Shown here piece after piece: positions 1-42,774 of a DNA stretch of 47,881 nucleotides. Origin of the DNA: Nemertoderma westbladi (taxonomy: Eukaryota > Animalia > Xenacoelomorpha); contig JAUCBJ010005457.1 of the NCBI GenBank assembly GCA_032718475.1, positions 1 to 47,881 on the forward strand, read 5' to 3'. Below the pieces are notes generated by a model. It was not told where the DNA came from. It ran no database searches and was given only the letters and a program-made list of their open reading frames with translations. The translations under genes and the position numbers were made by a program. Within the stretch, counting starts at the first letter, position 1. Each line of letters starts with the position of its first letter.

Positions 1-1118
1 TCTTCACACTGACATTGCTTCGTGCGATATTGCTCTCATACCGTATATTAAATAATACATATAGTAGCGTGATGTCCCTTTAACAGTAGCGTATAACGCA
101 AAATAAATCTGTTAAACCCTTTGACCATCTGTAATTCTAGTCGATTAAGATATCGCGGCACCCACCGATATACTTGAAAGACAAATTCTAGAATCAGTGG
201 TTAACGTCCCCAGACAAGTTCTGGAATAAATTGGTGCCCATCTCAAATATTAATTATTTAATATTTGCAAATCTAATAAATCAAAATATGTCCATTTAAT
301 TATCAAATAATAAAATTTCAGGGAATAAATTTAAATTCATATATTTTAATGAATTTAATAAATTGCCATTTTACGCAATTTATAACATTCCCAAAATTCC
401 ATTAATTAATAGATCAAGGGAGCGGAGATTTATATTATTATGCGTATGCGTGTACGAAAGTCTCCCAAACATAGTTAATAGCCGATAAAATTCGTAAAGT
501 CATGTATAAACAGGACATTGACTATTAAAGAATTACTATTAAATAACATCCCAGATCTGTATGCATTGGAATCACCCTAATTCTACCGCTAGCTTTGCAT
601 AATGTCACCATAGCAACAACCACGCTAGAATTAGAATTGAGTTAAAGGAACAATAGAAAGCTTGTCCCATTGAATAGCATAGGGAATAAATAGTGCACTG
701 ATAGTATCCAAGGATACATAATAATACAGTGACATTCTGGAAGGCATTGACTAACGGACAAGTGACCCGAGTGTGTGTAATTTGTGACAAGTTGTGTGTG
801 TGGTACTTGTGAGTTTATAGGCGAATGTTACTACTAAGGTGTGTTTACAGTAGCCAGTCGCAATCGTAAAGTAACCTAACTCTCCAAGGAAAACCTGAAG
901 TACATCTAAGCCTTTGGGACGGACAGTTGAGTGACTTGTGCCGGTTGTCATTGTCGTTGTGCGGCTACGTCGTTGGCGAAAGTACAGCAGCGACGACACA
1001 TCGGCGCTGAGGATCTCGTACTGTCCGGGGGTTGATTGGGGTAGGCAGCGACGCCCGCTCGCCTAAATGTGGACTCATTATAATATGGATAAACTCATAT
1101 ATAGCAGATTAGACGGAG

Positions 1119-2395
1119 TTGATAGAAGATGGTCTTGGTATCGGGGAGCGATATACTCTACTTTTGCAAGCGTTTGTTGATAGCTTAATACGCGGCGACG
1201 TTAGTCCAACTGCTGCGGAGGACGATGGTCGTTATATCGAACCGCCAATGTCCCAAGAGCAGCTCACGCGTGAGTTGGACTATAGAAAATTCGCTGCTCG
1301 ATATACGCAGCGTAATGGTACGTATATGGGCTTCTTAACTACTGGTCATCCTATCGATTTACACAATACGGACTATGTCGACTATATATCCTGCCCAGCG
1401 GAGTCGGAACCATAAACTGAAATTCGAATGCGAAAATTCTATTCGAAATCGACTCGAAAGAAAAGACACTAAAGAAACAAATGGACGTGGTAACTCCAAC
1501 GTATATTTGGAATTCTTGATAGAAGCATTGTAACAACAAACAAATATCACCCGCGTTTACCCTACCAGACGTGCGTCTTTGGTATTATTACGATAAACGC
1601 TCTAGACCCAACTAATAAACGGAAAGACATAAACATCCACGTAAACCGAAACTTGTTGACGTATCACCTATGCTCACTCGGCTCGAACGATCCTGGAGTA
1701 AACCTACGATCAGAGTCCCGGAATACTCGGTCAAACCTCCTCATTCCTTAGTTGGACCTCAGACCTGCGATCCTGGTGGTGTCGCGGATCCTCGCGGACT
1801 GTATTCACTGTTCAAAGATCTAGTGCTACCCTAACAATTAATCGGTAACACTCCGACAGTGATTTTTAGCTAGCCGCCCATCTTACCTAGCCGGATTGTG
1901 ACGCGGACACCTAATATCACTATCCAACCGTATGGTCATCCCCGTTTAATGCGATACAACCCCTCATCAAGGTGAAGGAGAGCGTTGTGCGAAACGAGTT
2001 AAACGCTATTCTATAAAGATCAAAAAGGAAACCTGCGTTTGTTCAGATAAACGTAAGTTATAACAGTAAGTCCAATCGATAAACGAATTGGCCTTATCTC
2101 AATTCGATTGGGAAATCCAGAATCTCTAAGAAGTTATCGAACTTGGACGATCCTATTCTCTGTGAGAGTTTTTGGATGAACGTATCCAGCTACGAGCGGA
2201 GGAAAATCAGCTCGAGGAGAAGCATATTGAAACGGCAGATACCTCGACCATAAATCTACACCTTCTGATGCAATCATATTGCACCCTTCACCCAGGAGTT
2301 ATGGCCCTCCTAGTAAAGTGGCTCCCCCCAAAGAGAAAAAGACTCTTGCTAGCCTCAAAAAACTGCGTAAACGCCGTCTGCGTAAGAAAGACTAA
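1119..2395 (+). pseudogene. Decayed, internally deleted copy of the retrotransposon accessory ORF
   Basis: ORFs 1119..1415 and 2172..2654 share peptides with 28894..29877 and 28033..28806, and the DNA also matches the 3' end of 25762..27300. Many stops and frameshifts. Confidence 0.88.
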
Positions 2396-2473
2396 CTGTT
2401 TAGAGTATCTTTATGTTTTAGAAACTGTGATTTTTATATTTTATAGACTGAAAATCCCATTTTCTGGGAGCGG

Positions 2474-3678
2474 TGTAAAAGCTTTTGCTGAATTGTCCGG
2501 TTATTTTTCCTTATTTTCCCGTAAAATACTCTGTAGTTGGTTTACCAGGCATAAAAAGGCCGTGTCCTTGCTGTACTGGTGTTTTAGCGGACATAAAAGC
2601 TATTTCTTCTGTATTTGTACTTTAGAGGACATAATCCGTAATTCTGTGACGTAAAAGCTCGATACTCTTGAAAACAGTGTCGCTACCATGACGACGGCTA
2701 GCAGCTGATATTGCCACGTCGACGTTTCTTTGTTTCTTTGTTCTCTCGTTGTTCAGGTTGACCAATCAGAGCGTTTGTTGTCTCTGTGTTGGAGGTATAT
2801 ACAGAAACTCAGTAGTTCAGTGTTATGTTTTTGCCCAGAGCCTAAGAACCGGCTTTTGGCACCTCCGTGTTTCAGTTTTTAGTCTTACACTAGTAGGTTT
2901 AATTATAAGGACATATATCCTTTAACTGTAAATATCTCACTGCTAACTGATCATACATACTGACTGCTGAAACATTGCAAACTCATAACAATCAGTGTTC
3001 AGTTGTTGTTTTATACTGCTATTTACTGTCAGTTCTTCATAATATGGTTGATGAATTATTATATTTGGAATAACGATAAATAACCCCGAAACCCAATATT
3101 CTTGATATACCGAAGGTAAGAGAGAAAGGTTACCAATAACGATTGTGACTTATGTTAAAGTGGTTTGAAGTGAATCCAATGTTATTTGATAGACCCTACA
3201 TGAGTCAGCCTGTGTTCCTTTTATATGTGACTAAAATCAGTGAAGATTGGCAGATTAGTGTGCAGTATTGTGCAGCATTGTGTATGAGTGAGTCTGTTAA
3301 AGAAGCAATTCCTAAAGAATGCGCCATATATGTGAATTATAATTAAGCCATATCGTTGTGAGTAGTTTAAGTCATAACTCTGTTTATATAGATAAAGCGC
3401 CACGTCCTAAAGGAACTGTTAATATTCCCGAAGGTGAATAATATTGTCAGAGATTATATAATACTGTCAGTCGAATAATACATTAGGCTTACATAGCAAT
3501 AAAATTAAACCGTCGAACCCAATCTCCCGGGAATCTCCAGCGGGTGAATGGTCGCGCACGGATTGGTTTCGACTAGTGTAGTGAATCAAATACTTGTCAT
3601 AGACTAAAAACTGATTTAATATCTAGAAGACATCTTAATTTGGCGGGTTAAACTGCCAAAGGTCTGAAAGCGCGAACA
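2474..3678 (+). repeat. 3' LTR (1,205 bp) of the sister element
   Basis: Starts TGTAAAAGC after the PPT-like GGGAGCGG and ends GCGCGAACA. Colinear with the reverse complement of 24488..25683, with shared blocks GACCAATCAGAGCG, GAATGCGC and CGCCACGTCCTAAAGGAACTGTTAATATT. Confidence 0.9.
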
Positions 3679-16060: not shown

Positions 16061-16486
16061 TCTCACATCACCATCATTGATACCTAGTAAATATGCGAGA
16101 TTATTATTTTATTGAGGGAGGGATAGGTGCAAACAGGAAACAACATCGGAGAAATAATAATAAATTGAATTGACAGTGAGAGGATTCTGGGGGCAACCGA
16201 TTCTAGAAAATGTTCAGCCAACCGAGGCCAATCGTCACCGCGTCGCCCATATCCACCACGACAGCGCGAGGCAAGGAAGTGCCGAAAATATGATGAGAGA
16301 ATCCACACATTCACTTCCCTAATCTCCTCTGCTTTCGGAGTTATAGCGCCAGCTGCGCACCAATTCATTAACAACTGGCAGTGAAGCTTACTGATAAACA
16401 ACAGGTCCGGTCCCTTTGCCTATCGTATCATGGGTGAGGTATGGGCCGCCGTTTGGACCAAAAATAAAAAAAATTATATTATATTA

Positions 16487-17403: not shown

Positions 17404-17455
17404 TATAACCTTATAATATAATAACTTATTATAATTTTAAAGATTACACGTCTTT

Positions 17456-18997: not shown

Positions 18998-19130
18998 CCA
19001 TTTCAACTTTTAGCCAAAACGGCGAACATTAACAGCTACCAATAATTGTCATGCTAGCTAGCGATTTTGCAAGTTAACTATTAATTTTTGAAAAAGCACT
19101 TTTTTCAAATATGTTCTATCCTTTGTACTA

Positions 19131-20672: not shown

Positions 20673-21059
20673 TACTATACTTTCTTTTATAAATTTTTCC
20701 AAAAATTATGTTATTGTTGCTATGGTTACAGTTCAAATAAATATTATCATTGTGATTATAACCAACTGTAATTTGTTGTCATTTTATTGCTTCAATTAAG
20801 TCAACAAATAATGTTTTCAACGAAATTTGTCTAGGTGGTTCTGAAGAAGCTTCTCCGTTGTCCCTTTCCGTCTTCGCATGATCGATTGTTTGGCACGAGT
20901 CAAGATTTTAGATAATTAAATAATATATTACACATAATAAATAAGTAGTTATAAAATTTATCAAATTTTTTAAAAACGTTCTAGAACGAAAAACATTTGT
21001 TCTAGAGTATATAGTATAATATAGGCTATTCGAAATATTCAGGCTATTCTTGCGAAGGT

Positions 21060-24230: not shown

Positions 24231-24487
24231 CATACAACATACAGAATAATACACTACATTACCGAACCAGTACCAGAGTACTGCAGTACTGAAATAGAAG
24301 TGCACTGCACTGACAAATTGGCCATTTTTGAAAATGAAAATATCACAATTTTATAAACCTTGCCAATGAAATCAGCACATTTTAAAACCTCAGTAACAAA
24401 ACTATACAGCCAAATTACCACTTTTGGCTATTTGAAAATTTCGAGCTACTTGTAATGTTGGTGCTCTTTTAGTGTCTATAATAAAAT

Positions 24488-25683
24488 TGTTCGCGCTTTT
24501 AGACCTTTAGCAGTTTAACCCGCTAATTTTAGGTGTCTTCTAGTTTATAAATCGACTTTAGCCTATAACAAGTATTTGTTGCATATAAGATATAAAGTTA
24601 CATTAGCCGAAGCCAGCCTATGCGCGACCATTCACCCACAGTTAAGGGAGACTGGATTCGGAGGCTCTGACCTTATTGCGGTGTAGACTTACTGTACTAT
24701 TCGATTGATCGTTAATATATAATCTCTGACAAATATTATTTACTTTTGGGAAATATTAACAGTTCCTTTAGGACGTGGCGCTCTAAGTATGTAAACAGAG
24801 TTATGACTTACACTAAACACAACGGGATGGCTAATGATTTTCGTATAAAGCGCATTCTTTAGGAAATGCTTTGTTATCTGTCACACTCATGCACACTACC
24901 GCACACTGCTGCACACTGATCTGCCGACCTTCACTAAATTTGATCATATATAAGGAGAATAGTAACTGACACATGTAGGGATTATGAAATAGCATTCAAT
25001 TCACTCCAAAACCACTATAATGTAAGTCGCAATTGCTACAGGTAACCGGTCTCTCTAACCTTCAGTATATCAAGAAGATTGGGGTTTTATGATTAATTAT
25101 CGATATTCTCCAAATATAACAACATATCCATCAACTTCTAACAATTAATAACCGACAGTAAATAGCAGTAAAATAATGCGGTGAAAGGTATGTATAGTAT
25201 GATTTGTTTGTATGATATGAGTTGAGTTGATAACAGTTATACGTTCCTATAATCAAAGCCGTCGAATGTTTGGCTAAAGTCTGAAACTAAGAATAATTCC
25301 AAAGCCGATGTTCTGGGGCTCAGGAAAAGGTAAACAAAGACCGTCATGCATTGCGCGATTTCCCGGAGGCTTCTGTGCAAATAAAATGAAAATCGCTCTG
25401 ATTGGTCGAATGAGCTGAACAAAGAGAGTTAAGAAAGCTCCACATCGACATCAAAATCAGCTGATAGATTTCGTCATCTAAGCCACACTGTATTAAGAGT
25501 ATTTTGGCGTATTGCGGCATAAAATGGCTTGTTATGTCCGCTAAAGTACACATACAGAAAAATGGCTTTTTATGTCCACTAAAACACCTACACAGTAAGA
25601 AAAACGGTTTTTTATGTCCGCTAAAACACCTACAGAGTACTTTGCGGAGAAAATGACTAGTTATATCCGCAAAAGCCTTTACA
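24488..25683 (-). repeat. 3' LTR
   Basis: Direct repeat of 41579..42774; about nine substitutions and no indels seen by eye. Confidence 0.97.
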
Positions 25684-25691
25684 CCGCTCCC
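25684..25691 (-). promoter_or_regulatory. Short polypurine-tract-like site (GGGAGCGG) next to the 3' LTR
   Basis: Minus strand TTTCTGGGAGCGG|TGT, identical in the sister copy at 2461-2473. Confidence 0.6.
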
Positions 25692-25761: not shown

Positions 25762-28700
25762 TTAGTCTTTCTTGCGCGGACGGCGTTTACGCAGTTTTTT
25801 GAGGCTAGCAAGAGTCCTTTTCTCTTTGGGGCGAGCCACTTTACTAGGAGGGCTATAAATCCTGGGTGAAGGGTGCAATACAATTGCATTGGAAGGTTTA
25901 GGATTACGGTCGGTGTATCCGCCGCTCGAGGTACCTGGTTGATCGATGTAAACCTCAGTGGAGCGAGGTCGGACGGCCTTTAGAGCGCGTTTCAGGACAG
26001 CAGCTCTTACTGGTCCCTGACGAGTCGTCTGAACGAGAGCGGTGGGTGGACCATGGGTAGTGAGAAACTTCCTCGGTTTAATGGTTCTTTCCAACTCGCG
26101 TTCTCGGGCTCGATATTCGTAGGGCCGTCGATGCACTTCCTGTAACTCTGGATGCGAGTTGATGAACAAATCGCCATACTCCGGATCTTGATGGATGAAG
26201 TTGATCAAGTTATAGGAATTAATATCGTTAGGATTAATGTTCCTGAGATATTTACGAACAAATTTGGTTGAAATACACTCACCAACACGCTTCATTAGTT
26301 CGTAACTCGGTGTGCGTGATTTTTGTTCAACAGACGCGAATAGATAAGGATGGAACGCATAAACTCCTTTGTAGGCGCGTCCAGGGTAATAGCGATGGCG
26401 TGACTCACAATGTAAATCCGCATTCGCTTCCCAAGCTCGGATGTAGCGTAGGGTAATCATTTCATCTACGCTTTCCAGATCGCGGTTAAAAGGGCAATCA
26501 AAACTGGCATGTCCTTTAAGTTGACAATGATGGCATTGAGTCATAAATTGGGGGCAGACTGCGAAAATGTGCAAGTTATTGAGTCTGCAATACGCACAAT
26601 AGATCTCCATCGCCGGTTGTTCATGGAAATAGGAGCAGGGTACGTCTGAGTCCATGGGGGTGAAATGATCTCTCGATGCGCATAATCGGCAACGTTTTCG
26701 AGAAACATAGTTGGCATGCCGATAGTCGTATGCGGTGAGACACTGTGGACCTTGATACCATTCCAAGACGTAGTCGTTGTCGCTGCTCCGGGGCGCTGTA
26801 GGCTGAATCTCCTCGGATTCTAAGCATATTGGTTCGTCTTCCAATTGCATAGCTGAGGTAGGTGTGGCTGTCTCCTCAAGCGAACCCGCTGTCTGAACTT
26901 CCACGATAGAATAACCCGTGGGGATTCGAGGTCTTTGTATAACAGAGGAATGTAAGTTCTGTATACAAACATCCTGGAAAATGGCGAATCCAGCGCTGTC
27001 TAACTTCTCAGCAGCTGAGTCTCTTAGGCTGAGCTTGGTCAGAGCGCGTTCCTTGAACTGACTATCAACGTTACGGAACGGAGTCAGAAAGCGCCAAAAG
27101 CATTCGAAGCGGATGAATTTATTGTGTTCATCTAGCTTGGCGAGTTTAGTTCCAAGTATTAAGGGATGGGCGCGTATAGTCCGACTGCACACATCAGCTA
27201 GCCAACCGGCAAGTGCGGCGTTTTCAAAGATCGTGTATATAGCTAAGGAGGGACGAAGTGGAACACTCATGAAGCTATACACGATGCCAGGTGCGGTCAA
27301 TGGTCCGTCAAAGTATAATCAAGAATAATGATCTCCATATACTTGTTGATAGTTGATAGGGTTTCCGACTTTGAAATTCCATCCGTATTCTTGAAAGGCA
27401 AGATGTCCGATGGAGGTTCGTTGTACTTTAGTAATGCCGCTGGGTGTATTGGCATACATAGTTCGGAAGAAACCTCGGCCTTCTGTCCAGGGAGCAATCA
27501 GCTGAGTATCTACGAAAGGATATGGGATATTCTCCATGTTCCGAAAGTCGTTTTGGAGATCTCCATAAACAGCTGAGCCAATTTTAAGGATTCTTTCGTT
27601 AAACAACATCTCGAGCACGGGCTGGGGTAACATCGATCCATCGATACCCATGGCCGGTTTGCGCTCGGTGTCAGTGAGGTAACGCTGCGCGAGTTCGAAT
27701 TGTCCATGTCGGAGTTTCTTTTGTATCTCGGTGAGGGTATCAAAAGAATAATCAATCACGTCGGAACACGCTCGAGTAAACACGTGGGTAGAACCAGCTA
27801 GTCCTCGTATATGTATCATGTGCGTAGTTCCCAGTTCTCCAACCGGAACGCTACCTTCGTTATCGTAAGTGACAACTCCATACATCTCGATAACGTTAAG
27901 AGTTTCGTTCCACTCTTTAGTGGCGTTTTCTAGGGTCATTCCCACTGGATGCCACAAGGTGGCGCATTCGCTAGCGTTAGGTAGATCTCTATACTTCAAA
28001 TACTGTGTAGTATATGTTTCTACATCTCCATATCATTGTATTCTCTCCTCCTCGAATAACACATCGAGATTCCAGTGGACTAATCGACTTTTGATAAATC
28101 CATCGAGATTATACGGAGGTATTACATCCTTCTCTATTCTGGAAACATAATAGGGTTTTCGGAATGAGTTCACTTTCACTAACTGATCCAGATGTTTCTG
28201 CAGTTGTTCGAGTTCGACAAGATCGAGAGGATTTTTTAGTGGTAGAAACCTTAGACTATGTGTAGGATCATCCGGTTTTACCATGTAATATTGAGTTAGA
28301 TTGACATAATAAGGGTGATCTTTGATCCCAGAAAACGAGTTCGGTAGAGGTCTAGCGCGTATGTTGACCTCGTCTACCATACGACGGACAAGATCCGCTC
28401 TATTGTCCGGAGGTTCAACGAGTATACGTTCGACACGAGCGGCCTCGATTGGTGGACGTTGCAACATAGGAACGTCAGCAATAAGATCTCGAGATCTTAG
28501 GTTGATATCAACCGGTTGAGGTTGTGCTGTGGCGAAGAGTTTGTCTCCGAAATGGGGAACCATCGAAGGATGAATGATGGTTTTAGAATAGAGATCAGTC
28601 ATAAGGATTTGAGCTTCTGGCTGGGCTAAAGCTGCTTTTTCTCTCTCATCCATTTTGATGTGTTTCTCCTCGAGCTGATTTTCCTCCGCTTGTCGTTGTA

Positions 28701-30015
28701 AATGCTCGTCTAGGAAATCTTGTAGAGAATAGGTTCTTCCAAGTTCGATGTCTTCCTCGAGGTTCTGGATTTCTCTATCGAACTGGGGTAAAGCTAATTC
28801 CTTCACCGCTTGGACTTGTTGCTGCTATTTGCGTTTCTCTAAACAATCGTAATTTCCTTTTCCGATCTTCTGCCGAATAGCGTCTAACGCGTTTCATACA
28901 ATGCTCTCCTCGACTTCGGTGACGGGTTGTATCGGGGTTAAACCGGGACGATTGTACGGGTTGAACGGCGATATTAGATGCCCGCGTCCCAATCCGGCTA
29001 GATAGGATGGGCGAATATCTAGCGAGCCCACTACCGGAGTGCCACCGATTAATTGTTCGGGTAACACAAGATCTTTAAATAGTGAGTACAGTTCAGGGGG
29101 ATCCGTTATACTATTAGGATCAAGCGTTTGAGGTCTCACTAAGGAATGAGGAGGTCCGACCGAGTATTCCGGAACTCTGATCATGGCTTTACTTAAGGAT
29201 CGTTTGAGTCGAGCGAGCGTAGGTGATACGTCGAACAAGTTTCGCTCGAAACTCCCATAGGTATAATGAGTAAAACTGTGTTTAGCGCAACGTCTCCGCG
29301 GATGTTTATGTCTTTCCGTTTGCTGGTTGGGTCTAGGGCATTCATCACAGTAATACCAAAGACACACGTCCTGCAAGGGAAATGCGGGTGATCGTTCTCC
29401 AGTTTTACAATATTCCTCCATCTGTTCGAAGCTATCTGGGACGACAGGTAGCGGTCGATCGGAGGTAAGATACATCATAGTGAAATAGAGCCATTTGAGT
29501 TCTATCATGGGGTCATGATGTATACCTTGAGGATATCGAGTTTCTAGATTCTGTTGACTGGCAATATTGAGATATGTTTCTCTCAAGAATTCCAGATAAT
29601 CGTTGAAGTCACTGCGTTTATCCGGCTCTTCAACTTCTTCTCTTTCGAGTCGGTTTCGAATAGAATTCTCGTGTTCTATTCTCGGTTTATCGTTCCGACT
29701 CCGCTGGGTATGATATTTAAATAAAACCATTTCCCTTTCGGTGTCTACATCGTCCGTGTCGTGTAAATCAATAGGATGGCCAGTAGTTAAGAAGTCCATA
29801 TACGTACCATTACGATGCGTGTAGCGAGCGGTGAATTTTCTATAGTCCAATTCACGCGTGAGTTGCTCCTGGGACATTGGCGGTTCGATATAACGACCAT
29901 CGTCCTACGTAGTAGTTGGACTAGCGTCGCCGCGTATTAAGCTATCAACAAACGCTTGTAACGGTAGAGTATATCGCTCCCTGATACCAAGATCATCTTC
30001 TATCAACTCAGTCAT
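25762..30015 (-). pseudogene. Accessory ORF2 (~1,417 codons, five in-frame stops, no frameshift): Cys/His motif, coiled coil, DEDDy 3'-5' exonuclease, CCHC knuckles, basic tail
   Basis: ORFs 28894..29877, 28033..28806, 27319..27999 and 25762..27300 share one frame, with an upstream ATG at 30015. ExoI VVTYDNEG; ExoII LEMLFNERILKIGSAVYGDL..PFVDTQ; ExoIII-like PLRPSLAIYTIFE; CAYCRLNNLHIFAVC and CHHCQLKGHASFDC; tail LKKLRKRRPRKKD. Confidence 0.85.
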
Positions 30016-31680
30016 AGCTGCTATATTAGTTTATCAATATTATAATTAGTTATAATTAGGCTAGCGGGCGTCGCTGCCTACCCCTCACGGCCTCCGGACA
30101 GTGCAAGATCCTCAGCGCCGATGTACCGTCGTGGCTGTGTTTTTCGCCAACGTAGTAGCTACACAACGACAACGATAACCAGCGCGAGTCACTCCACTGT
30201 CCATCCCAAAGGCTTAGATTTACTTCAGGTTCTTACTGCAGAGTTAGGGCTACTTTCACAACTGCGACTCGCTACTGTAAACACACTTTAGTAGTAACAT
30301 TCACCTATAATCGCACAAATTCCACACAACTGTCACAAATTGTACACATTCGGGCCATTTGTCCGTTAGTCAAGTGCCTTCCAGAATGCCACGTTATTAT
30401 TATGTATCCTTGGATACTAGCAGTGTGCTATTTATTCCTTATGCTATTCAATGGGGCAAGCTTTCTATTGTTCTTTTAACTCGCTTCTAATTCTAGCGTG
30501 GTTGTTGCTATGGTGACATTATGGAAAGCTATCAGTAGAATTAGGGTAATTCCCATGCATACAGATCTGGGATGCTATTTAATAGTAATTCTTTAATTGT
30601 CAATATCCCCTTTATACATGATTTTATGAATTTTATCGGCTATTGGCTATACATTGGAGATTCTCGCACACTAATACACTTAATAGGGTGAATCTCCACT
30701 CCCATGATCTATTAATTAATGGAATTTTGGGAATGTTATAAATTGTATAAAAATGACAATTTATCAAATTCATTAAAAGAGATGAATTTAAATTTATTCC
30801 CGTAAATTTTATTATTTAATGTTGGAATAAGCACAATTTTATTCCAGAACATGTCTGGGAACTGTGATCCTTGATTCTAGGAAATTTGTCCTTTTAAGAG
30901 TATCGGTAAGTGCTACGATATCTTAATCGACTAGAATTTTAAAGGATCTAAATTTTGACAGATTTTAATTTATAGATTTTCTAGAGTTAACTTGTAAGTA
31001 TTTACTCTATTGTATTTGTTTGACAGATTTTATAAATATTAATAGTTAATATTTGAGATGGGCACCGGTTTATTCCAGAACATGTCTGGGGACGTTAACC
31101 ATTGATTCTAGAATTTTGTCTTTCAAGTATATCGGTGGGTGCCGCGATATCTTAATCGACTAGAATTGCAGATGGTCAAAGGGTTTAACAGATTTATTTT
31201 GCGTTTTACGCTACTGTTAAAGGGACATCACGCTACTATATGTATTATTCAATATACGGTAGGAGAGCAATATTGCAAGAAGCAATGTCAGTGAGAAGAG
31301 GCAAGTCGTTTCCAAGGTCTACCCAGAGCTTGGTTTAGCCGAGACACGAGGATCTGAACTTTGCATTCCTAATACTCTACTTACCAATAATACTTGAGTA
31401 TAGTAGGAGCTTTATTGTACTTTAATAAGGAAAGGAAAGGAAAGTAAGGAAAGAGAAAAAGAATTATTTCTCGCCGTCGCACTAAATATATAATATATAA
31501 GTAATTAAGTAATAAGACTAATATATATTGCACTAATCTACTAGATAATCGCTAAAATAACATTCTACTAAATAAAATTAAAGAAAACGATTATAATAAA
31601 AGTACATAATAATACATACATAAATATAAAATAATAAAAACATATAAAATAATATAGTCACACACCCACTCCAGACGCTG

Positions 31681-34600
31681 TTACGTTGGGGAGTCCCTAG
31701 ATGTCCCTAGATTGAGTTGTTTTGTTTCGAACACAATTCCAGGTTTCTTAAAGTTACGTCGCATGACGACGAGTTCTACCGATCGCACCAAACCATCATC
31801 TGAGATATGAGTCTCGATGATACGACCTGTCTGCCACCGCTTATGTGGAAGATCTGACTCCACAATAAGGACCATGTCTCCTGCGCTGACGTTTTCTTGC
31901 TGCTCAAACCACTTAGTTCGAAGTTGTAGCGTAGGCAGATAATGTTTTTCGAAATGGTCAGCGAAACGACGGGATAACAACTGCATAAGTTGCCAAGTTT
32001 GCCGGCAGTATTCGTCTCCGTCCGTGATTTCCGATCGTGGGAGCATGGCTACAGGTTTCTTCAGTAGGAAGTGCACGGGAGTTGGCGCTTCCAGGGAATC
32101 GGGACTCGATGAGACTGGCATAAGCGGTCTCTCATTGAGATAGGCGGCGATTTCCTCCATTAACGTCCGCAAAAGTTCGTCGGTGAGATACGCGCGGCAT
32201 GGCACTATAAAGTGAAATGCTGTCTTCACGCTCCTGATTAATCTCTCCCAACTTGCTCCCCACCAAGGGGCGTCGGCGGCGTTGAAGGTCCAGCTAGACG
32301 CTGTTACCCTTAGCTGATCGTCCACCTGTCTTTGGTTCCAATCTTTGACGTAAGCCTTGATTTCATTGTTGGCACCAATGAAGTTCGTTCCCTTATCAGA
32401 TCTCATCGTGTTACTAGTTCCAAAGCGAGTGATCTGTCGGCGTAAGCTCAGTATGAAGCTATTGGTAGATAGATCATTCACCATATCGAGATGGATAGCT
32501 CTACAAGTCATACAGACAAAGATGACACACCATCTCTTGACTATAGTCCTAGCACGATATACTTCAATAGGGCCAAATAAATCCACACCGGTATTTGTGA
32601 AGGGTGGTTCATAGAAGCTTACTCGTTCCCTAGGTAATTCTGCCTCTCTCTGTGTTAAAGGCCTACTGAATGCTTTCCTACAGGGTATGCAGTTCCTAAG
32701 AACTTGGTTCAGAGCTCTACGGGGTTTATGAAAATAATAGCGAGTTCGAATTTCGCTAAGAACTCGTTCTCTACCAGCATGGTAAAGCTTACTGTGAACA
32801 TCTACAATCATCTTGATTTGTATTTCAAGATTTCTAATGAGTATGGGAAACTTAGTGTCAAAGGATAATGGAGCATTAGTTAGTCTTCCTCCAACGCGTA
32901 TTAACCCATCTATCATTGTGCTAGAGAAACGATCCCTTAAGCGCATCTGTGGATTTCTCAACAACAGGAAATACTTATCGGAATCCTCATAGCATTGCAG
33001 GAGTCTCAGTATCTGCTTATTGGTTTCTTCATGCTCCTGGTAACTGATCCTCTCCTTCAGAAATCTGTCTGATATCTTGTATTTGGGAAGATCTTTAACA
33101 ACATGGACCTGCGCAGATGTCAGTGGAGCGGTATCACTAGCGATCTTCGTCCTGGAGTAGTGATGATGAAAACATCGCTTTAAATAAGCAACGGCCTTAC
33201 AAAGCCGATTCCAGGAGCTATAGTGATGTATCGCTCTCTGCAGGAGAGGTTAGAGTCCCTGCGAGACGTCTGGTGTTCCAGATTTCCAATCTCTCTCTCT
33301 GATTTCCACAACAGACTTATTTGTGGTGGGGGATTGTGGATCCAAAGCGTCGTCTCCGGAAGTGTGTAGTACAGACAGATCTATCACGGGTTTAAATAAC
33401 TTCGATTTATTCGCCCGGGTTTTAGGTTTGACTTTCTCCGCTCCCTTGGCTTGTCTAATCTCCGCCGTGGTAAGATGAGGAGGCCATTCATCCTCTTCCT
33501 TACTTAGGAAGTCGGGTCCACCAAACCAGTCTGGAGTATCTATCAGTTCTTGTGGAGTTGCTCCCCTGGAGGCGATGTCGGCTGGATTAATCGTCCCAGG
33601 GCAATGTCTCCATTGATCTATCTTCGTGCGACTAAGTATAATGGCTACTAAGTATAATGGCTATAATAGTCGATCTGTTCTGTTACATTCCGGCCGATGG
33701 CTGTAGCGTATAGAGCCGCTTTTAACTCCGCTCGAGGAACTTTCAACTTGTTGTTTATCAAGGCCTTAGAGGTAACCAAGGCGACCTTAATTCCATCCGG
33801 AGTTTCAACTCTCAGGTAGGCTACTATACCTATTCCCATGTCGCTGGCGTCTCCAAACACATGGAGTTGATAGGAATACGTGGGGAGAACGTGACCAAAA
33901 TAAGAATGGGAAATCGTAAAATTCTCGATGGATGGTAGAGAATCTTCCCATTTCATCCACTTCTTTAATAGTTCTCCCTTACGTGGATCGTCCCACGAGT
34001 GGTTTTCAAGCCACATTTGATGTACTAAACTCCGAGCAATCAATATAACTGGGCTAATAAATCCCAATGGATCGAAATAAGTGCTCAGGATACTTAGACA
34101 AATCCGTTTAATCCGAACTGGATTATCTCGCTGTTTTAGCTGGAAAAACAGGATATCTCTCTCTGTGTCCCATTTCAAACCAAGCATCTTGGTTTCTGGA
34201 AGATCGTCCTTGATAAGGTCTAGATCTTTAACTCCTCGGTCTTCTACCGGGATCGATTCCAGAAATTCACGGGAGTTACTGGTGAATTTAGTTAATCGAA
34301 ATCCACCTCTTTTCAAGCACTCTACCGTTCCTTTGGCGACATCAATGGCTTCTTCCACCGATGGGAGGGACTTTAAATTGTTGTCCATGTATATATCCTG
34401 TTTGATGTTGTCGATAACCTCTTTGGAGAAGGCGTCCCGGTTGTCATCAGCAGTGGTGCGCACTACTGAGCAGGCGTTTGAAGGGCTCGAGATGATCCCA
34501 AAAGCCTGGATGGTCATCCAGTACTCCACCGGTTTCTGGTTGAGGTCTCCTTCAGGCCACCACAGAAATCATAGGCTGTCCCAATCCTTATCCAGCGCCT

Positions 34601-37600
34601 TAACTTGTAAGAACATGCCTTCTATATCGGAGGCGAAAGCGATCGAATATTGTCGTAATCTTAAGAGTATTCCCAATAAGGATTGGAGTAAGTTTGGTCC
34701 CGGCAACAACTCGGAGTTAAGGGATTGGCCCATGTAGAGGGTGGAGCCGTCAAATACTACCCGGACTTCGTTGGGTTTACCGGGTTTGGGAACGTAATGA
34801 TGTGTTAAATAGTACGTTCTCTCAGTTATAGGTGTTTCTTCCGGTACTCGCTCCGCATATCCCTTGTCAATGAATTTCTTCAGCTGGGTCTTGTACATCT
34901 CCTTAGCTGAAGCATTTGCCGTAAGGCGTCGATGTAGTTGCGCAATTCTCTTCTCCGCCAAGGGTCTGTTGTTTATAAAATTGGGTTCTTGCCGTCGGAA
35001 AGGCAGACCAATCTCATACCTACCTTGATCTTTAAGAAAACGGGTAGTCGTTTCCTGTATCTACTTGGCTCTTTCCTCTTCTACCGATAGGGCCTTATCG
35101 TAGGAATTGGGCTCTACAGCCTCTTGAGTAAAGAATCGTACGGCGTGTTCATCGCGAGTCTTCGTGTTGTAACGATCTATCACTTCATTCAGTTCGTCGT
35201 TGTAATCGACTTGTCCCACTGGATGGATGAGGTGACACAGGTTCACTTGGTTTTGCCAAGTTTCATTTTCTGTAAGGAGGTCGATGGTATTCTCCTCGTC
35301 GAATAGTTGATGTATATCGTCATTATCTGAGGAGTATGGTGTTCCCTCAGGTGTGTCGTCTCCCTCACTGATTTCCTCTTCCCATTCACTCACCTGGTAG
35401 ACCTGTTCTTTAGGTAGCCTTTCCATGAGAGTTCTACGGGAAGGTCCAGTAAAGTACCAACCTACTCTAGTTCTTCCCGCATAGGTTTGCAGTGGTTGCG
35501 GTTGAGCAGGCCGTTTCTCTAATGTCTCAAGCGCCTCATGCGCATTTTGGCCGATGAGTATTTGTACCCCTGGGTAGTCGGTGTTGAATCTAGGTATCTC
35601 ATGCTGCTGGGTGAAATCGTCTTCATCCCAGTTATAAGGTTCCACTTGGCTGGTAGCGAAGTTCTTTATCGCCACCATTTTTACTGACCTTATACTGTGT
35701 TCTCCTAGTTCATCCTGGGGGGTGGACAACGCGCCTACATAGTAGTCTGTAGCTACTGTAGATTTCCAAACCTGCATAATTCCTGAAAGGTTCAACTTAG
35801 TTCGGAACTTGGGTTGTCCAGCAAAGATGTCTTCGGCTAGTTCTTTGTCGATGAATGTTCCTGTGCTGCTGGAATCAAGGAGGGCGTTCACTATATAGCT
35901 CCTTTTTAACCCATGGACTCTCAACTGCACACCGGGAAATTCTCGGATTCCTACGTTGGAAGTTGGCGCTTTCCAAGATGGTTGTCGGTCAGGAATAGTT
36001 AGGGGAAGCTCACTATCGGTTTCAGTCTCATACGTAAGTGCTCGATACACTGCAGTGTTTATTAGATAACAGGATTCGTTTTCGTCGGAGAATTCATCCG
36101 TGTAGAATCCTTCCATCTCAGAACTGAGGTCAGTGTCGTTCACATCACTGAATTGGACATGTAGTTCGGACTCACTTACCTGACTCGGGCTGTTTCTTTC
36201 GAATTCGGTGTGCAATAAGATATGATGTTTCGCGCCGCACTTAGCACATCTTGCGTCGGAGTAAAAGGTTCGCCGTTGGTGTCCTTGTCTGAGACAATTA
36301 TAACACAACCGCTTATCCCACATGACTTCGCGTCTATCTTTTAGGGATTTCTTTAAGAATTCCTCACACACACTTAAACGGTGGGGCCCGTTGCACAACG
36401 CACATTTTGGTTTGATGTTACTTACTTTACCTTGGGTAGTGTTGTGCACACTCGTTCTTTCCTCGGGCTTTCTTCCATGAACACTCTTAGGAGACGTAGG
36501 AGGAGTTTTTGTTACCTGTTCTCTCCTGTCACTGTTTCGAGACTTAAATTTACTTACGTCTTTGGGTGCCTTGTTGACATAATAAGATATTTCGGTGTCT
36601 TTCCCGTTGTTCTCCTCTTGAGAGGCCTGGCTTTCGCCATCGTCTGTATAACACACTGGTGTTACCTTTCTCCTAGAAACGGGTTTCTCACTTATCTTAT
36701 TTTCTGGTGTCTTCTCTCTGGACTGCTTTAGGAGCTGTAATTTTACCTCTCCATCCAAGAATGACATGAGATCAGCCATGGTAGGGTCTCTTCGTTGTTG
36801 TTCCATCATATATAGAACTCTTTTGTCCCAACGAGTTCCCACTCCACCCTTTGGCAAGGTAGATGCTACTGCTCCAATAACCATAGAACTCTGATATTCA
36901 TGAGACTTACCTAGCCAATCTAATTGTCTACAAATCTCCTGGATCTCATCGGAAAATTCTATAATTCCGCTGCTAAGAAACTTTCGGGGCGCTACCAATT
37001 TCGCATACAAATACCTAGCTATGTTATTCCTATTACCATACCTGATGTTTAGTGTATCCCAAACTTGTCTTAATCCATCTGGATGTCCAATAAACTTTAA
37101 CGCCATTAACTTGGGAGATCCTTCCAAGCACTCGATGAGGAATCTAAGTTTCTCTCCGTTAGATAGCACAGAGTTCTGTATGTTATCTTTATAATATTCA
37201 TTAAAAGGTAACCATTTCATCTCATCTCCGTTGAACTTGACGATCTCTCCCACCTTTACCGCTTGACGGGCTTCGGTTCTAGCCATTTGACGCGTAAAAC
37301 TTTCTTGGGCCATCGTATTATTTAATATCGAGTTATCGGTATATAAATTTCTCGGATTATTATGAGGTCTATATGGAATATCATTGTCAACAGGTTTATA
37401 ATTACCCTTAATAGGGTTTACTATAGGAGTTTCTACTTCACTAGCAGTATAGATGCGTGTAGGCTCCACACCTTGCGCATGAAATACTTCAGACCTAACA
37501 GGTTGACACATTGTTACAGAGGGTGGTGGTATACCCTTTTGTAGATATACTAACTTATCGCGTTCTAACGCGATACTCTGCTGCACTTCCTGCAATTCTA

Positions 37601-39614
37601 ACCTACTCTCTCTTACTGTTCCCCTTAACTGTTGAACAGTCCCCTCCAACTCTCGGACCTGCTGGGAGGAGCGTGCCTGATTCTCCCCCATCTGCCCGAG
37701 GAGAATATCCATCCCCCGCCGTCGCTCATCCACCCACTCTACCGCCGAAGCGGGAGCCGCCAACATAGTAGCGGGTAGACGAGGGACGACGGGCGATAAA
37801 TCGTTAATGTCTTGCTCGGCGTCCAGGACTGGAATTGACTCTGGAACAGTCCTACTGGTTACAGGTAGTTTAGTACTGTGCAAAGGGAATTTAGAGTTAG
37901 GTTCTGGAAGTACAGGGGTCTCTATCACAGAAGGGGTGGCTTCGAGAACAGGGCTAATTATTTCAGGCTCATCTACTATAGTAGGGAGTCTTTCTACTCT
38001 AATAATTTGGTCTGTGGGTTCTGTACTACCTAAGTCTGTGCTAGCTAGTTGCCTTCTCACGGCTGGGGGCAAATTAGGCAATTTCTGACGGTGGGGCGTT
38101 CTTCTATGCCTGCTGAGACGAGATCTATTTCCTCCGCCTTCAGGATCTGTTGTCTCGCCTTCATCAGATGATGTAAATCCCTGTCGCTTGGGAGTAGATC
38201 GACTTATCATCTGCATGTGAGTAGCTGTTCTCTGTTTATTTAAGTAGTCTTGCTTCTCTTGAATATTTTCCAACTCTAGTTGGGCTGTCTCTTCAGATGC
38301 CCTTCGTTTGGTTTCTGCCACTGCCAATGCTGCCTTTCTATTAACCTCTACCGCTGCCGCTGCTGCTTTTCTTTCAGCCTCTACCGCTGCCGCTTCTGCT
38401 TTTCTTTCAGCCTCTACCGCTGCCGCTGCCGCTTCATGTCTTTCTTCTATCTGTTTCTTCTTTAACTGTCCTTCTTGGACCCTGGCGACGCGGATGCTTT
38501 CATCAAATTTAGCTTGGTTCGCAGCTACCATTTCTGCATCTAATGCGTCCAACACAAACTTGGCTCCTTCACTAGTAGGGTGAAGTCCAGCCAGCCGTCT
38601 CCTCAACTCTTTGTCACCTATAAATCGTTGATAGTCCGACAGATAAATGTCAATGGCGTCCTTCTTCTGAGGTTTCTCTGATGTCGCTTCGCTTTCCACT
38701 TGAGTAAAGGTAGCGTCTGTTGATTCTCCGTGGGTTGAGCGCTCAGCCAGCTGAATTTTCCACTGGGCCATTCCTTGAACTTTGAGACCCACCCGCTGGA
38801 ACCAAGTCTTTACGGCAACTTGCAACGACGTTTCTTGGCTTCTCTTCGAAGCTTCCTCAAAGGCAGAAAGGATCAGTCTGATTCTTAGGATTCGTTCTCG
38901 AACTTGATAAAGCAGCTCTCCCTGCTCTTGAGGTCCTTGGGGTTGTTGAAACAGTTGTTCCTCTAATCGCTCCAAAGAGCTGAAGAATCCCTGTACATAT
39001 CCTGCTGCCGACCTCTTCCACACAGCTGGATCTCTAGTGTCTCTTACCACTCCCATCCTGTATAAGTCCTCCCAGTCAGCTTCCGATAAGTTAAACGGGA
39101 GTCCGGGTCCGGGGAAATTCCATTGCGTCTCGACAATAGACTTCAGTTCCTCCTTCGTGTATCCCGCATAACTGTCCTTGGTCGATCGCTTACTTCTCGC
39201 CCAATCCATTTGATGTTCCTCCACCGCAATCAATACTCTAGTGAGTACGGCTTCAGGAAGAATGAGAAGTGGATCCGATTAAACTGCTTCTGCCATCTTT
39301 GCTCCACGCTCGGGTGTCAACTCTACAGTATCTGAACTACTGGAGCTATCGGGCCACTGAGAAATAAGTTCTCGGGCTCGAGTGTTGCTGTTGTTTAACA
39401 GCTGCCTCTTGGTCCCGCTTGACTTGAGCCCGAGTGCCTATGATAGACCTATGGTGTTTGACTAGCCTAGGGTCTGATACTACTACTGGAGGGATGACCT
39501 TTCTTACAGTAGGAGGGGAGTTGAACTTGGTCTCAAACGTTCCGCACTCCTATCTGGATCACAGATTGTTGTATCTAGGAGACTGTCTGACAGGTTTTGC
39601 TTTGTGTCAGCCAT
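31681..39614 (-). pseudogene. gag-pol polyprotein disrupted by nonsense codons and one RNase H lesion; start probably 39614 or 39296
   Basis: Gag KFNGDEMKWLPF..LSNGEKLRFL; CALCNGPHRLSVC, CYNCLRQGH, CAKCGAKHHILLH; protease ALLDSSSTGTFI; RT YYLTHH..VRVVFDGS..GPNL..DIEGMFLQV..YMDN; RNase H LHVFGDAS..PRAELKAA..NPADIASRG; integrase HAG..CIPC..GVDLFGP..RSDKGTNF..WERLIRSVK. Confidence 0.95.
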
Positions 39615-41578
39615 GTTTGTTTGTACAGTTGAATGCCTACTGCTAGAACTACAGTTAAAGCAAGTCTAGTAATTCAGTATCAACTATAAGCCTAGTAATT
39701 AATTACCGATATCGTTACTCAGTGTAACGTGATATATACAATATATTAGAATACCGGTATACACTTACAGTATATATAAGTATTATTACGGACTAGGGTT
39801 CGTCACAGAATGCTGGTATATAATTTAAGCATAAATATTAAAATATATAATAAGCCTATCGTGAATACCGGTATACAGCATAAACCTATAGTATATATAA
39901 GTATAATTATAGACTAGAATTAATTACAGAATACCGGTATATATTTTCAGCTTAAATTTATAGAAATAAATATAATAAACCTATCGTAAATACCGGTATG
40001 TCAATTATTTTATAATAACTGAATTTCTGAATTTTAGGGTTACTTTACGTTACTTTATTACCGTTATTTAAGCAGTAGTCCAACTGATATTAAGACCTAA
40101 TTGATGGATGACAGGCCTACTATTTTATAAATCAGTTTGAGTTGATTTATAATATATATATACCCGTTTAATGGGTTTTGTTACAGTATTTGAAATAAAT
40201 ATTATTATTTCTAGGTAAGGAGTCACTTCACAGAAGCTGAACGCTCTCAGTGGAGTGCTACTTATTGGACACTAAAACAAATAATTCTAATTTACTAAAT
40301 TACTTATTACTACAAATTACGTACAATTACTGGGTGAGATTACAATCTCTAAATAAACACAAAAAAAATTACACGTACAAATTTTAGGGTAATTTTACAG
40401 GAAATCTACGAACCAGCCTAACAAGGGGTTAGAAATTTCTGGTTATTACAAACGGACAGGATACTATGGTATTTGAAAATAATAAAGCAGTAGTAAATAT
40501 ATTGCGTTGTCTAGATAAGAAATTCCCATATAGTCTCTAGCTTTACAGCTCTATAAGTACTACGTTATGTACCCGGAATGTCCCTACCTAGAAGTTAATT
40601 ACCGCAGCCAACCATAGCTAACGTGCCTATTAACCACTTTACAACACAAATATACTGCCTACACACTAATTACCTTCGGAAAGCACTGTACACTAAACCC
40701 TAAATTAGGTACAAGTGCTTATACAACAAATAATCAGCAGTTTAAAATACTTGTACAGCTAAAAGAACCACGGTATCTGCTGGAGTGACTAGAGCATAAA
40801 ATCACCAGTCTTTACCTACGCCAAACAGCCCTGATGTAGTACCGGGGTTAATTTAACTATAACGGTATGTATAACAAGCACAATTACTGTAGGAATAAAC
40901 TTGGGGTTGTGTATGTTGCGAATAATCGCATATACTCTGAATAATAAATATTACGCTACCCGTACAGACTACACAAACAAAATACAAACCAAATGCTGAC
41001 AGACTACTATCAAGCCTAAATAAACTACAGTATATGCAGAATCCGAAATGGTTAGTTAGTATGCGTTCTAACCGAGTAGTACGACTTATTCTTTCAGAGG
41101 GGATTTACCTTACAACACTGGATGCCCCTACCTTCCTAACTAGTATTTTATCGGACATACACTCTACACACACTGCAATCTCTTCGGACCTGACAACAGC
41201 CAGACAACAATCCAGCAAACAAATTATTTGTACAATTTGAGCGGGCTTACACGCCTTCTGCTCAATATAAACTTACAGATAAATAAAACTGACAGAAATA
41301 AGTAAAATCCCAATAAAAAACCAGGGCGGCCGTCCCTGATTAAATATCAAGACCTACCAGTATATAATTATCAATATCGAATAATACTGCTGTACCTGTA
41401 AGTACCAGTTCGGGTAGTCGGGCAGTCAGGCCTACAGCTTACCGTTCGACCGGTACCTTCGACTTTATTGCCTACGGTGCAATAAAGAAACTAGAATAAC
41501 TGTTATTGTTCTTACCAGAACAATAGTAAACTGTATTTATTGTCTACTGTGCAATAAAGGAAAATCTATAACTGTTAT

Positions 41579-42774
41579 TGTTCGCGCTTTTAGACCTTTA
41601 GCAGTTTAACCCGCAGATTTTAGGTGTCTTCTAGTTTATAAATCGACTTTAGCCTATAACAAGTATTTGTTGCATATAAGATATAAAGTTACATTAGCCG
41701 AAGCCAGCCTATGCGCGACCATTCACCCACAGTTAAGGGAGACTGGATTCGGAGGCTCTGACCTTATTGCGGTGTAGACTTACTGTACTATTCGATTGAT
41801 CGTTAATATATAATCTCTGACAAATATTATTTACTTTCGGGAAATATTAACAGTTCCTTTAGGACATGGCGCTCTAAGTATGTAAACAGAGTTATGACTT
41901 ACACTAAACACAACGGGATGGCTAATGATTTTCGTATAAAGCGCATTCTTTAGGAAATGCTTTGTTATCTGTCACACTCATGCACACTACCGCACGCTGC
42001 TGCACACTGATCTGCCGACCTTCACTAAATTTGATCATATATAAGGAGAATAGTAACTGACACATGTAGGGATTATGAAATAGCATTCAATTCACTCCAA
42101 AACCACTATAATGTAAGTCGCAATTGCTACAGGTAACCGGTCTCTCTAACCTTCAGTATATCAAGAAGATTGGGGTTTTATGATTATTTATCGATATTCT
42201 CCAAATATAACAACATATCCATCAACTTCTAACAATTAATAACCGACAGTAAATAGCAGTAAAATAATGCGGTGAAAGGTATGTATAGTATGATTTGTTT
42301 GTATGATATGAGTTGAGTTGATAACAGTTATACGTTCCTATAATCAAAGCCGTCGAATGTTTGGCTAAAGTCTGAAACTAAGAATAATTCCAAAGCCGAT
42401 GTTCTGGGGCTCAGGAAAAGGTAAACAAAGACCGTCATGCATTGCGCGATTTCCCGGAGGCTTCTGTGCAAATAAAATGAAAATCGCTCTGATTGGTCGA
42501 GTGAGCTGAACAAAGAGAGTTAAGAAAGCTCCACATCGACATCAAAATCAGCTGATAGATTTCGTCATCTAAGCCACACTGTATTAAGAGTATTTTGGCG
42601 TATTGCGGCATAAAATGGCTTGTTATGTCCGCTAAAGTACACATACAGAAAAATGGCTTTTTATGTCCACTAAAACACCTACACAGTAAGAAAAACGGCT
42701 TTTTATGTCCGCTAAAACACCTACAGAGTACTTTGCGGGGAAAATGACTAGTTATATCCGCAAAAGCCTTTACA
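41579..42774 (-). repeat. 5' LTR
   Basis: Minus strand TGTAAAGGC...GCGCGAACA. Contains ~41-bp tandem units near its 5' end and a CCAAT box (GACCAATCAGAGCG, ~42490) conserved in the sister LTR. Confidence 0.97.

Follow-up and report, generated by a model that had tools for sequence, protein, structure and literature searches.

A multicopy BEL/Pao retrotransposon family with a third gene for a predicted DEDDy-like exonuclease with zinc knuckles

ORF3, the third gene of a multicopy BEL/Pao family, encodes a protein predicted to combine a DEDDy-like exonuclease with zinc knuckles. Our preferred, still tentative reading is that it is an RNA-binding ribonuclease directed against the silencing small RNAs of the host or their precursors, to the advantage of the element. 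The copy described here lies on the minus strand of the window, by which we mean the whole 47,881-nucleotide stretch that was analysed. Its features are collected in Table 1.

Table 1. Positions of the element, of its genes and of related features in the window
Feature	Position	Strand	Description
5' LTR	41579..42774	-	1,196 bp, TGT...ACA termini, 99.2% identity to 3' LTR (9 mismatches)
3' LTR	24488..25683	-	pairs with 5' LTR; 9 mismatches
TSD AAAAT, 5 bp	left 24483..24487, right 42775-42779	+ (left)	sequence flanking the LTRs
Primer-binding-site position	41567..41578	-	directly after 5' LTR; 12 nt complementary to LTR 42332-42321
Candidate self-primer in LTR	42321..42332	-	LTR positions 443-454; chance test
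gag-pol	31681..39278	-	BEL/Pao-type; Gag with DUF1759 and Cys/His knuckles, PR, RT, RH, IN
Non-coding spacer between pol and ORF3	30016..31680	-	1,665 bp; contains ~230-bp direct repeat; candidate promoter/splice region
ORF3	25762..30015	-	1,417 codons, 5 internal stops in window copy
N-terminal Cys/His cluster CDEC/HKH/CAKH	29278..29349	-	aa 223-246; motif in translation
DEDDy-like (DnaQ-like) domain	27181..27918	-	~aa 700-945; D718, E720, D819, Y927, E931; ~45-aa insertion after Exo I
Three zinc-knuckle-like motifs	26494..26691	-	aa 1109-1174; one with canonical spacing
Basic C-terminal tail, NLS-like	25765..25851	-	sequence; putative nuclear import
Short polypurine-tract-like GGGAGCGG	25684..25691	-	abuts 3' LTR; putative role, from position
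Degenerate second relative	1..3678	+	spacer, ORF3 without codons ~456-1364 (nuclease and knuckles), 3' LTR ~70% identical; extends past window start

The element measures 18,287 bp overall and has the paired LTRs, TG...CA termini and TSD of BEL/Pao elements. The DUF1759 and Cys/His knuckles of Gag and the PR-RT-RH-IN order are also of BEL/Pao type. In pol, Pfam recognised Peptidase_A17 (E 7.7e-31) and DUF5641 (E 3.7e-20), and PF05380 was present on all 120 listed of the 147 homologues of an integrase piece. These results support the assignment of the element to BEL/Pao (Belpaoviridae), with a pol nearest to BEL/Pao polyproteins. It had been called giant, and 18.3 kb is indeed far above the BEL/Pao median of 7.4 kb, but below the reported maximum of 22.8 kb. 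The window copy is dead, since ORF3 has five stops and the gag-pol reading is interrupted by at least four stops and, near 33640, by a change of frame.

The preliminary description had joined four apparent ORFs into a single frame with five single stops, and our translation reproduced every stop position. The stops are at codons 37, 374, 397, 661 and 899 (first bases 29907, 28896, 28827, 28035 and 27321). Each of the remaining five frames of this span holds 66-95 stops, and the Poisson chance of five or fewer is about 3e-27. Four separate genes are ruled out by the one continuous frame and the one selection pattern, and an assembly artefact is ruled out because ORF3 was seen in three studies. 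ORF3 lies inside the LTRs and the TSD as described, and its distance from the 3' LTR, estimated before at about 80 bp, is 78 bp. We also agree that it is not env: it contains no hydrophobic segment that could serve as an anchor (best 19-residue Kyte-Doolittle mean 1.19), and neither Pfam nor PDB sequence searches gave a fusogen match.

Related contigs were collected from four runs (X1-X4) covering three samples and three studies, one of them possibly the source of the window assembly. The runs gave 25,545, 18,855, 8,951 and 374 contigs, and 30 of 30 ORF3 bins were covered in every run. The ORF3 copies are divergent, down to 80% identity. At codons 397 and 899 essentially all contig depth shows another letter than the window copy, so those stops are private to it. 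The span 27150-27950 has 184 variant rows; for the selection test we took the 40 with the best support, with one break row dropped. Within these best 40 of 184 rows, 25 of the 31 segregating sites in the nuclease domain were synonymous, compared with 29% expected (p 5e-9, pN/pS 0.10), codon position 3 held 26 of the 31, and the five catalytic codons had no variant. Sites private to the window copy were near neutral, with 3/8 synonymous in the nuclease region and 11/33 over the whole ORF. This supports a family that is alive in selection terms, with the nuclease domain of ORF3 under purifying selection between copies. Since this selection acts among many copies, ORF3 does something for the element, and the non-env cargo gene proposed at the outset is one that the family keeps.

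The motifs of the domain were found where they had been predicted. The Exo I DxE is present near 27864, the Exo II block resembles the RNase D/WRN/EXD2 type, and the Exo III-like segment at 27237 has Glu for the last Asp. D718 and E720 align to DTE in 10 of 11 reference DEDDy domains, to DAE in one and to DVE in P0121, a distant homologue of ORF3. D819 aligns with the Exo II Asp (hhalign 94% over the block). At Exo III, YxxxE replaces YxxxD in both ORF3 and P0121, and therefore we name the domain DEDDy-like and not a canonical member. In the MAFFT joint alignment, Exo III was matched with another 'PLT...Y' stretch of ORF3 that lies upstream, so the register of Exo III depends on the pairwise comparison of ORF3 and P0121.

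The proposed likeness to RNase D/WRN/EXD2-type domains was borne out by profile matches that are weak but concordant. Only two NCBIfam families matched ORF3, both of them RNase D (E 0.0092 and 0.047). When the ORF3 and P0121 domains were compared with 11 bacterial DEDDy domains, hhalign gave 94% with E 1e-7; the strong match extends over no more than the roughly 50 residues of the Exo II block. An HMM of the 11 bacterial domains gave 5.7 bits for ORF3 and 14.0 bits for P0121; none of the 300 shuffles of either and none of the 120 BEL/Pao controls reached these values. With the P0121 domain, the sole source of support from the Atlas, as the query, 25 of 30 matches were in the PF01612 set (best 0.94); PF01612 is found on 34% of the members of that cluster. 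P0121 itself matches PF01612 at E 0.2. Pfam alone gave no exonuclease match for ORF3 at E<=1, and PDB sequence searches gave none either. AlphaFold on one- or two-sequence input reached pLDDT 30 and 28, and Foldseek with the first model (pLDDT ~30) found no match. We consider a DnaQ fold of the domain very probable, and catalysis by a site whose fourth metal ligand is Glu rather probable, with less confidence.

P0121 was the sole match to ORF3 among 1.84 billion proteins (E 9.3e-5). At 29% identity it has the same layout, with DxE, the Exo II Asp, DTQ, YxxxE-N and three knuckles; the four acids as well as the knuckles are conserved in this distant homologue. Its knuckles match NC and Air2 chains in the PDB sequence search. 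A word-based search with ORF3 aa 650-1200 gave no match among proteins of length 779-2480, and a two-sequence profile search returned P0121 itself only (proteins of length 316-1134). None of these protein searches returned the DEDDy ORFs published for rotifer retrotransposons. Locus scans found no relatives in metagenome, viral and prokaryote genome contigs, and a tblastn search of plasmids and phages with P0121 yielded nothing beyond chance matches. Judged by their sequences, ORF3 and P0121 define a small protein family with an apparently altered fourth catalytic residue. As a natural intact homologue, P0121 makes the enzymology testable.

Outside the nuclease domain, the CDEC..HKH..CAKH motif was located as reported. 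A coiled coil had also been proposed, but the stretch at ~aa 400-470 is charged and helix-like, and a crude heptad score did not pick it out. The knuckles had been counted as two clear CCHC and one looser. Three knuckle-like motifs are indeed present, but only the one at aa 1161 has the exact CX2CX4HX4C spacing; in the second, five residues separate Cys and His, and the first carries a long tail. Profile searches recognised no family for the N-terminal region, PHROGs returned nothing, and the Atlas gave no usable match for the N-terminal 336 aa.

Nuclease cargo in retroelements is already known. Among the elements with such cargo, the rotifer Juno and Vesta clades are presumably gypsy-like. 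In C. elegans, Cer elements that belong to BEL/Pao are said (by Malik et al. in 2000) to encode both env and, next to it, an RNase D-like exonuclease; the window element has no env. DEDDy ORF3s were published for the rotifer LTR retrotransposons Juno, Vesta and Athena/Terminon (Rodriguez et al. 2017, PMC5408684), so the rotifer precedent named in the preliminary description does exist. The available text of that paper calls DEDDy domains previously unreported in retrotransposons. The rotifer genes it describes share with ours the RNase D-like DEDDy domain, the env position and the absence of a transmembrane segment; they have a DEED motif, and that text reports no within-genome departure from neutrality. 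In contrast, the window ORF3 belongs to BEL/Pao, has D-E-D-E instead of DEED, is 1,417 aa long, is under measured purifying selection and adds an N-terminal half without a recognised family, three knuckles and a basic tail. With ORF3, the range of DEDDy cargo comes to include a BEL/Pao gene for a multidomain protein of 1,400 aa. Its usefulness to an element had never been shown, and selection on it has now been measured.

The window element shares LTRs, TSD, PPT, gag-PR-RT-RH-IN, DUF1759, Peptidase_A17 and DUF5641 with BEL/Pao (Belpaoviridae, Semotivirus; PMC8742986 and PMC3118150, available text). According to the ICTV profile (PMC8742986), these elements are 4.2-10 kb long, have an 18-nt primer site for a tRNA and carry no third gene other than env. 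Our element has 18.3 kb and shows no tRNA-type site, and its third gene is nuclease-like. Host DEDDy exonucleases (RNase D, WRN, EXD2, Mut-7/Nibbler, EXD1; PF01612) have the Exo I DxE, the Exo II Asp and DTQ, and the PL...Y Exo III in the same order as ORF3, which differs in YxxxE, the long insertion after Exo I and the fused knuckles. ORF3 cannot be assigned to one named host member because there is no significant pairwise match to any. Dada DNA transposons also encode a DEDDy exonuclease, but within the transposase and with DEDD kept (PMC3706591, available text). Our literature search, which covered neither the Repbase, Dfam and GyDB collections nor Malik et al. 2000, found no BEL/Pao exonuclease ORF in print, and the word 'exonuclease' is absent from PMC13524379 and the available text of PMC3118150.

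No TGG-type tRNA primer site was found directly after the 5' LTR, and no tRNA gene within the window. The first 12 nt past the 5' LTR form a perfect complement to LTR 443-454, the 3' end being flush with the LTR end; this hints at self-priming. Such a complementary primer-site position is also known from Tf1/Tj1 of the Ty3/gypsy group, with experimental support in Tf1 (PMC4600332, available text); in the window element it is a 12-nt complement. ORF3 could then be a replication accessory whose exonuclease trims the 3' end of the LTR RNA back to the 12-bp duplex. DEDDy enzymes do process structured-RNA 3' ends, and the duplex is in the minimum-energy fold for transcripts starting at LTR 430 or 443 (pair probability 0.25-0.46). 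However, it is lost with a start at 400, the LTR motif could be a TATA box, and the complement was tested post hoc (5/5,000 shuffles and 73/13,302 real positions reached 12 nt). In the second copy the LTR keeps only a 7-nt core, and the primer site of that copy falls outside the window. In Tf1 the primer is reportedly made by the RNase H domain. We regard self-primer trimming as unlikely; if true, it would be an extra step in reverse transcription.

A proofreading or cDNA-end-processing role for the long element (~17-kb RNA), comparable to nidovirus ExoN, is similarly improbable. The size of the element fits it, DEDDy domains act as proofreaders of DNA polymerases, genome growth has been linked to ExoN, and the Dada domains were proposed to process DNA 3' ends (PMC3706591, available text). 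Yet ORF3 is separate, 1.7 kb beyond pol and not fused to RT, and makes up about a quarter of the extra length itself, and published lists include BEL/Pao elements of up to 22.8 kb without mentioning an exonuclease. Alternatively, the domain could, in the manner of EXD1 or Maelstrom, be a dead or weak nuclease fold which together with the knuckles binds RNA as a scaffold or decoy. The YxxxE and the insertion after Exo I would suit this, piRNA biogenesis offers known cases of inactive DEDD derivatives, and purifying selection is no proof of catalysis. To our knowledge, however, dead DEDD derivatives usually lose catalytic acids, and here four acids and the Tyr are retained in two proteins only 29% alike, which makes a dead fold rather unlikely. 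LTR elements do capture host ORFs and P0121 may itself be a host gene, so ORF3 could be a recently transduced passenger. This is highly improbable and largely refuted by the strong purifying selection between copies; ORF3 is also intron-free, occurs in many divergent copies and in a second subfamily, and has no close host homologue among 5.8 billion and 1.84 billion proteins.

In the preferred reading of ORF3 as an attack on silencing small RNAs, the protein would be expressed on its own, from the 1.7-kb spacer, and imported into the nucleus through its basic tail. The knuckles would capture RNA, and the DEDDy-like domain, as a 3'-5' exonuclease, would trim or destroy the small RNAs or their precursors; the substrate is the weakest step. 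Mut-7, EXD1 and Maelstrom are host DEDDy proteins of small-RNA pathways, and arenavirus ExoN is reported to suppress host immunity. For the rotifer ORF3s, the available text of PMC5408684 gives no clear link to copy number. Should its target be small RNAs, ORF3 would represent a rare case of an animal transposon that counters silencing by an enzyme. A wider version, in which a large BEL/Pao lineage encodes a multidomain ribonuclease with a new D-E-D-E site and knuckles that in trans degrades piRNAs/siRNAs or cuts its own tRNA-independent primer, seems doubtful.

Action in trans would allow nuclease-less derivatives to spread. Deletion derivatives without the nuclease domain do exist in the family: besides the second relative in the window, a contig of run X3 has a similar deletion joint (25924-28661).

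ORF3, the third gene of the BEL/Pao element, is an accessory gene under selection, distinct from env, whose product combines nuclease-like motifs and knuckles with a basic tail. Its frame of 1,417 codons holds five stops, against 66-95 in each of the remaining five frames of the same stretch (Poisson p about 3e-27), so ORF3 is a single decayed gene, as the preliminary description had proposed. The motifs lie where that description had placed them, and the predicted lack of a transmembrane segment agrees with a maximum mean hydropathy of 1.19 over 19-residue windows. Of its three knuckles only the third has canonical spacing; three are also present in P0121, a distant protein homologue. The coiled coil did not stand out in a crude heptad score. 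Searches with the N-terminal 650 aa gave no explanation of that region.

Features of the element and of the surrounding window
Feature	Position	Strand	Remarks
ORF3	30015-25762	minus	ATG to TAA; stops at codons 37, 374, 397, 661, 899
Nuclease region (selection test)	27150-27950		
Exo III-like segments	27225-27303	minus	two 'PL......Y', 14 codons apart
LTRs	41579-42774 and 24488-25683		1,196 bp each; 9 differing sites; ends TGT...ACA
Primer site and LTR complement	41567-41578 and 42321-42332	minus	12-nt complementarity; possible self-priming signature
Leader	39279-41578		2.3 kb, AT-rich, between 5' LTR and gag frame
Repeat in leader	39759-39968		direct, ~121 bp
gag-pol	39278-31681		DUF1759, Peptidase_A17, Integrase_H2C2, DUF5641
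Tandem repeat in gag	38298-38429		33 bp; encodes Ala/Glu/Lys-rich helical stretch
Second copy	1-3678	plus	degenerate; without codons about 456-1364; LTR about 70% identical
Satellite-like array	3676-5575		~234-bp units
PiggyBac-like transposase fragment	7868-8209		PF13843, E 3.8e-8
Identical direct repeats	7274-7413 and 8651-8790		140 bp
Short frame	9064-9375	minus	
Long inverted-repeat elements	16473-17422 and 19126-20677		foldback or MITE-like
Non-LTR reverse transcriptase fragment	44884-45311	minus	degenerate; RVT_1 E 0.074

The ORF3 stretch was found in four sequencing runs (X1-X4) from one organism, three samples and three studies (one may be the window's own source), with 30/30 bins covered in each. 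Contigs matching at 80% likeness numbered 25,545 (X1), 18,855 (X2), 8,951 (X3) and 374 (X4), totals that reflect many divergent copies and are not copy numbers. Among the best 40 of 184 variant rows in the nuclease region (one break-codon row dropped), 25 of the 31 segregating sites were synonymous, where 29% would be expected (binomial p 5e-9), 26 fell on codon position 3 and pN/pS was 0.10, where shares are contig depths of top-supported rows only and sites are non-independent. Private sites, defined by at least 96% of depth differing from the window in each of X1-X3, were synonymous in 3/8 cases in the same rows (Fisher p 0.03 versus the segregating class). Over the whole of ORF3, 38 of the 40 listed rows (two break rows dropped) gave 11/33 synonymous private and 4/5 synonymous segregating sites. 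The protein has been retained in the family, and this copy is decaying. The codons of D718, E720, D819, Y927 and E931 have no row in the best 40 of 184, which does not prove them invariant.

Nearly all contig depth shows another letter where the frame breaks at codons 397 and 899; the other three breaks have no row in the best 40 of 1,201, and the degenerate second copy at the window start is free of the stop at codon 37. Run contigs are also joined at places similar to this copy's deletion, so derivatives without nuclease and knuckles form a subfamily. A satellite-like array begins at the end of the second copy's LTR.

No exonuclease match to ORF3 was found in Pfam, where the preliminary description had proposed to look, or in PDB. 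A phmmer search of 1.84 billion proteins returned a single relative, P0121 (648 aa, E 9.3e-5), a singleton on a 9.4-kb ENA contig. It aligns over ORF3 aa 775-942 at 29% identity and in the knuckles, with the same motif order (DxE, Exo II block, DTQ, YxxxE-N, three knuckles). Since YxxxE is shared, the Glu that serves as fourth acid is a family trait rather than decay. Of the two Exo III-like segments of ORF3, the second alone carries the acid and matches P0121. Beyond the knuckles, ORF3 aa 1175-1230 and P0121 aa 555-600 are aromatic-rich and align weakly, possibly a further shared module.

Both NCBIfam matches of the window domain were RNase D. P0121 reached E 0.2 against PF01612; 25 of its domain's 30 Atlas matches fell within the PF01612 set and the other 5 were unnamed eukaryotic clusters, the best match scoring 0.94 with 173 features in common (PF01612 on 34% of that cluster). 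In hhalign, E. coli RNase D reached 57%, and a set of 11 bacterial DEDDy domains, picked from 40 listed of 75 records, reached 94%. An HMM of these 11 gave 5.7 bits for ORF3 and 14.0 for P0121, compared with maxima of 1.8 and 0.8 in 300 shuffles each and 2.5 for the best of 120 BEL/Pao proteins. The local profile match of ORF3 is limited to the Exo II block, and because joint alignment places the upstream 'PLT...Y' stretch under Exo III, the Exo III register rests on the pairwise match. Several weak lines thus concur on a probably DEDDy-like domain; the likeness claimed in the preliminary description stands, but not canonical membership, with Glu as fourth acid and AlphaFold models at pLDDT 30 and 28.

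Our preferred reading, plausible but tentative as a whole, is that the ORF3 product is an RNA-binding 3'-end trimmer acting in trans against host small-RNA silencing. It would be expressed separately from pol and enter the nucleus; its knuckles may bind RNA and the nuclease may trim 3' ends. Action in trans would follow from the existence of derivatives without nuclease and knuckles. We favour counter-silencing on grounds of analogy: Mut-7, EXD1 and Maelstrom have roles in small-RNA pathways (PMC5408684 for EXD1 and Maelstrom), and arenavirus ExoN suppresses host immunity. Alternatively, ORF3 could bind RNA as a catalytically dead scaffold, which we consider unlikely. Rather less probable, and equally so, are a primer-trimming factor of the element and an exonuclease for proofreading or cDNA-end processing. 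That ORF3 is a passenger gene is very improbable.

ORF3 with its exonuclease-like domain and knuckles is a real feature, and DEDDy ORFs in retroelements are already described. Malik et al. in 2000 reportedly noted that Cer elements of nematodes contain an RNase D-like domain, a statement that did not recur in the literature searched. The claim of novelty holds in so far as no BEL/Pao exonuclease ORF was found in the literature searched (Repbase and Dfam lay outside the search), but Rodriguez et al. 2017 (PMC5408684) described putative DEDDy exonuclease ORF3s in rotifer Juno, Vesta and Athena elements, as two reviews repeat. Those carry a DEED motif, whereas the acids of ORF3 here read D-E-D-E. 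A DEDDy domain is also present in Dada DNA transposons (PMC3706591).

The BEL/Pao identity was confirmed by the gag-pol domains and by PF05380 in all 120 listed of 147 integrase-piece homologues (29-40% identity). The LTR pair is flanked by AAAAT, with a short purine tract directly upstream of the 3' LTR; 1,665 bp separate the pol end from the ORF3 start and 78 bp its end from the 3' LTR. At 18,287 bp the element, described as giant, is large against the 4.2-10 kb of the ICTV profile (PMC8742986) and a survey median of 7,382 bp, but no record, since the survey maximum is 22,762 bp (PMC3118150). The gag-PR frame spans 1,405 codons, and gag-pol carries at least four stops and one frame change. 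The internal region (25762-39278) is more damaged than LTR age implies: ORF3 has 5 stops against 0.56 expected (p 0.0003), a count compatible with the ~2% divergence estimated from shared words (p 0.18). This excess suggests gene conversion of the LTRs, or a template that was decayed before it was copied in trans.

No TGG-type tRNA site was found directly after the 5' LTR. The first 12 nt there are the complement of LTR positions 443-454, with no gap to the LTR end, a match equalled in 5/5,000 shuffles and 73/13,302 real positions. The modelled duplex forms with an RNA start at LTR position 430 or 443 and is absent with a start at 400; the second copy's LTR keeps a 7-nt core only. The element thereby resembles the self-priming Tf1/Tj1 (PMC4600332), as a lead only, and the motif could instead be a TATA box. 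A second instance of LTR end and primer site, with an 11-nt complement, lies about 70 nt further downstream, from 41511 on, and a hairpin follows each copy.

Elsewhere in the window, the PiggyBac-like fragment lies between the identical direct repeats. The short frame had no Pfam match and resembles exon 1 of a secreted peptide precursor, with a hydrophobic leader followed by a KR site.
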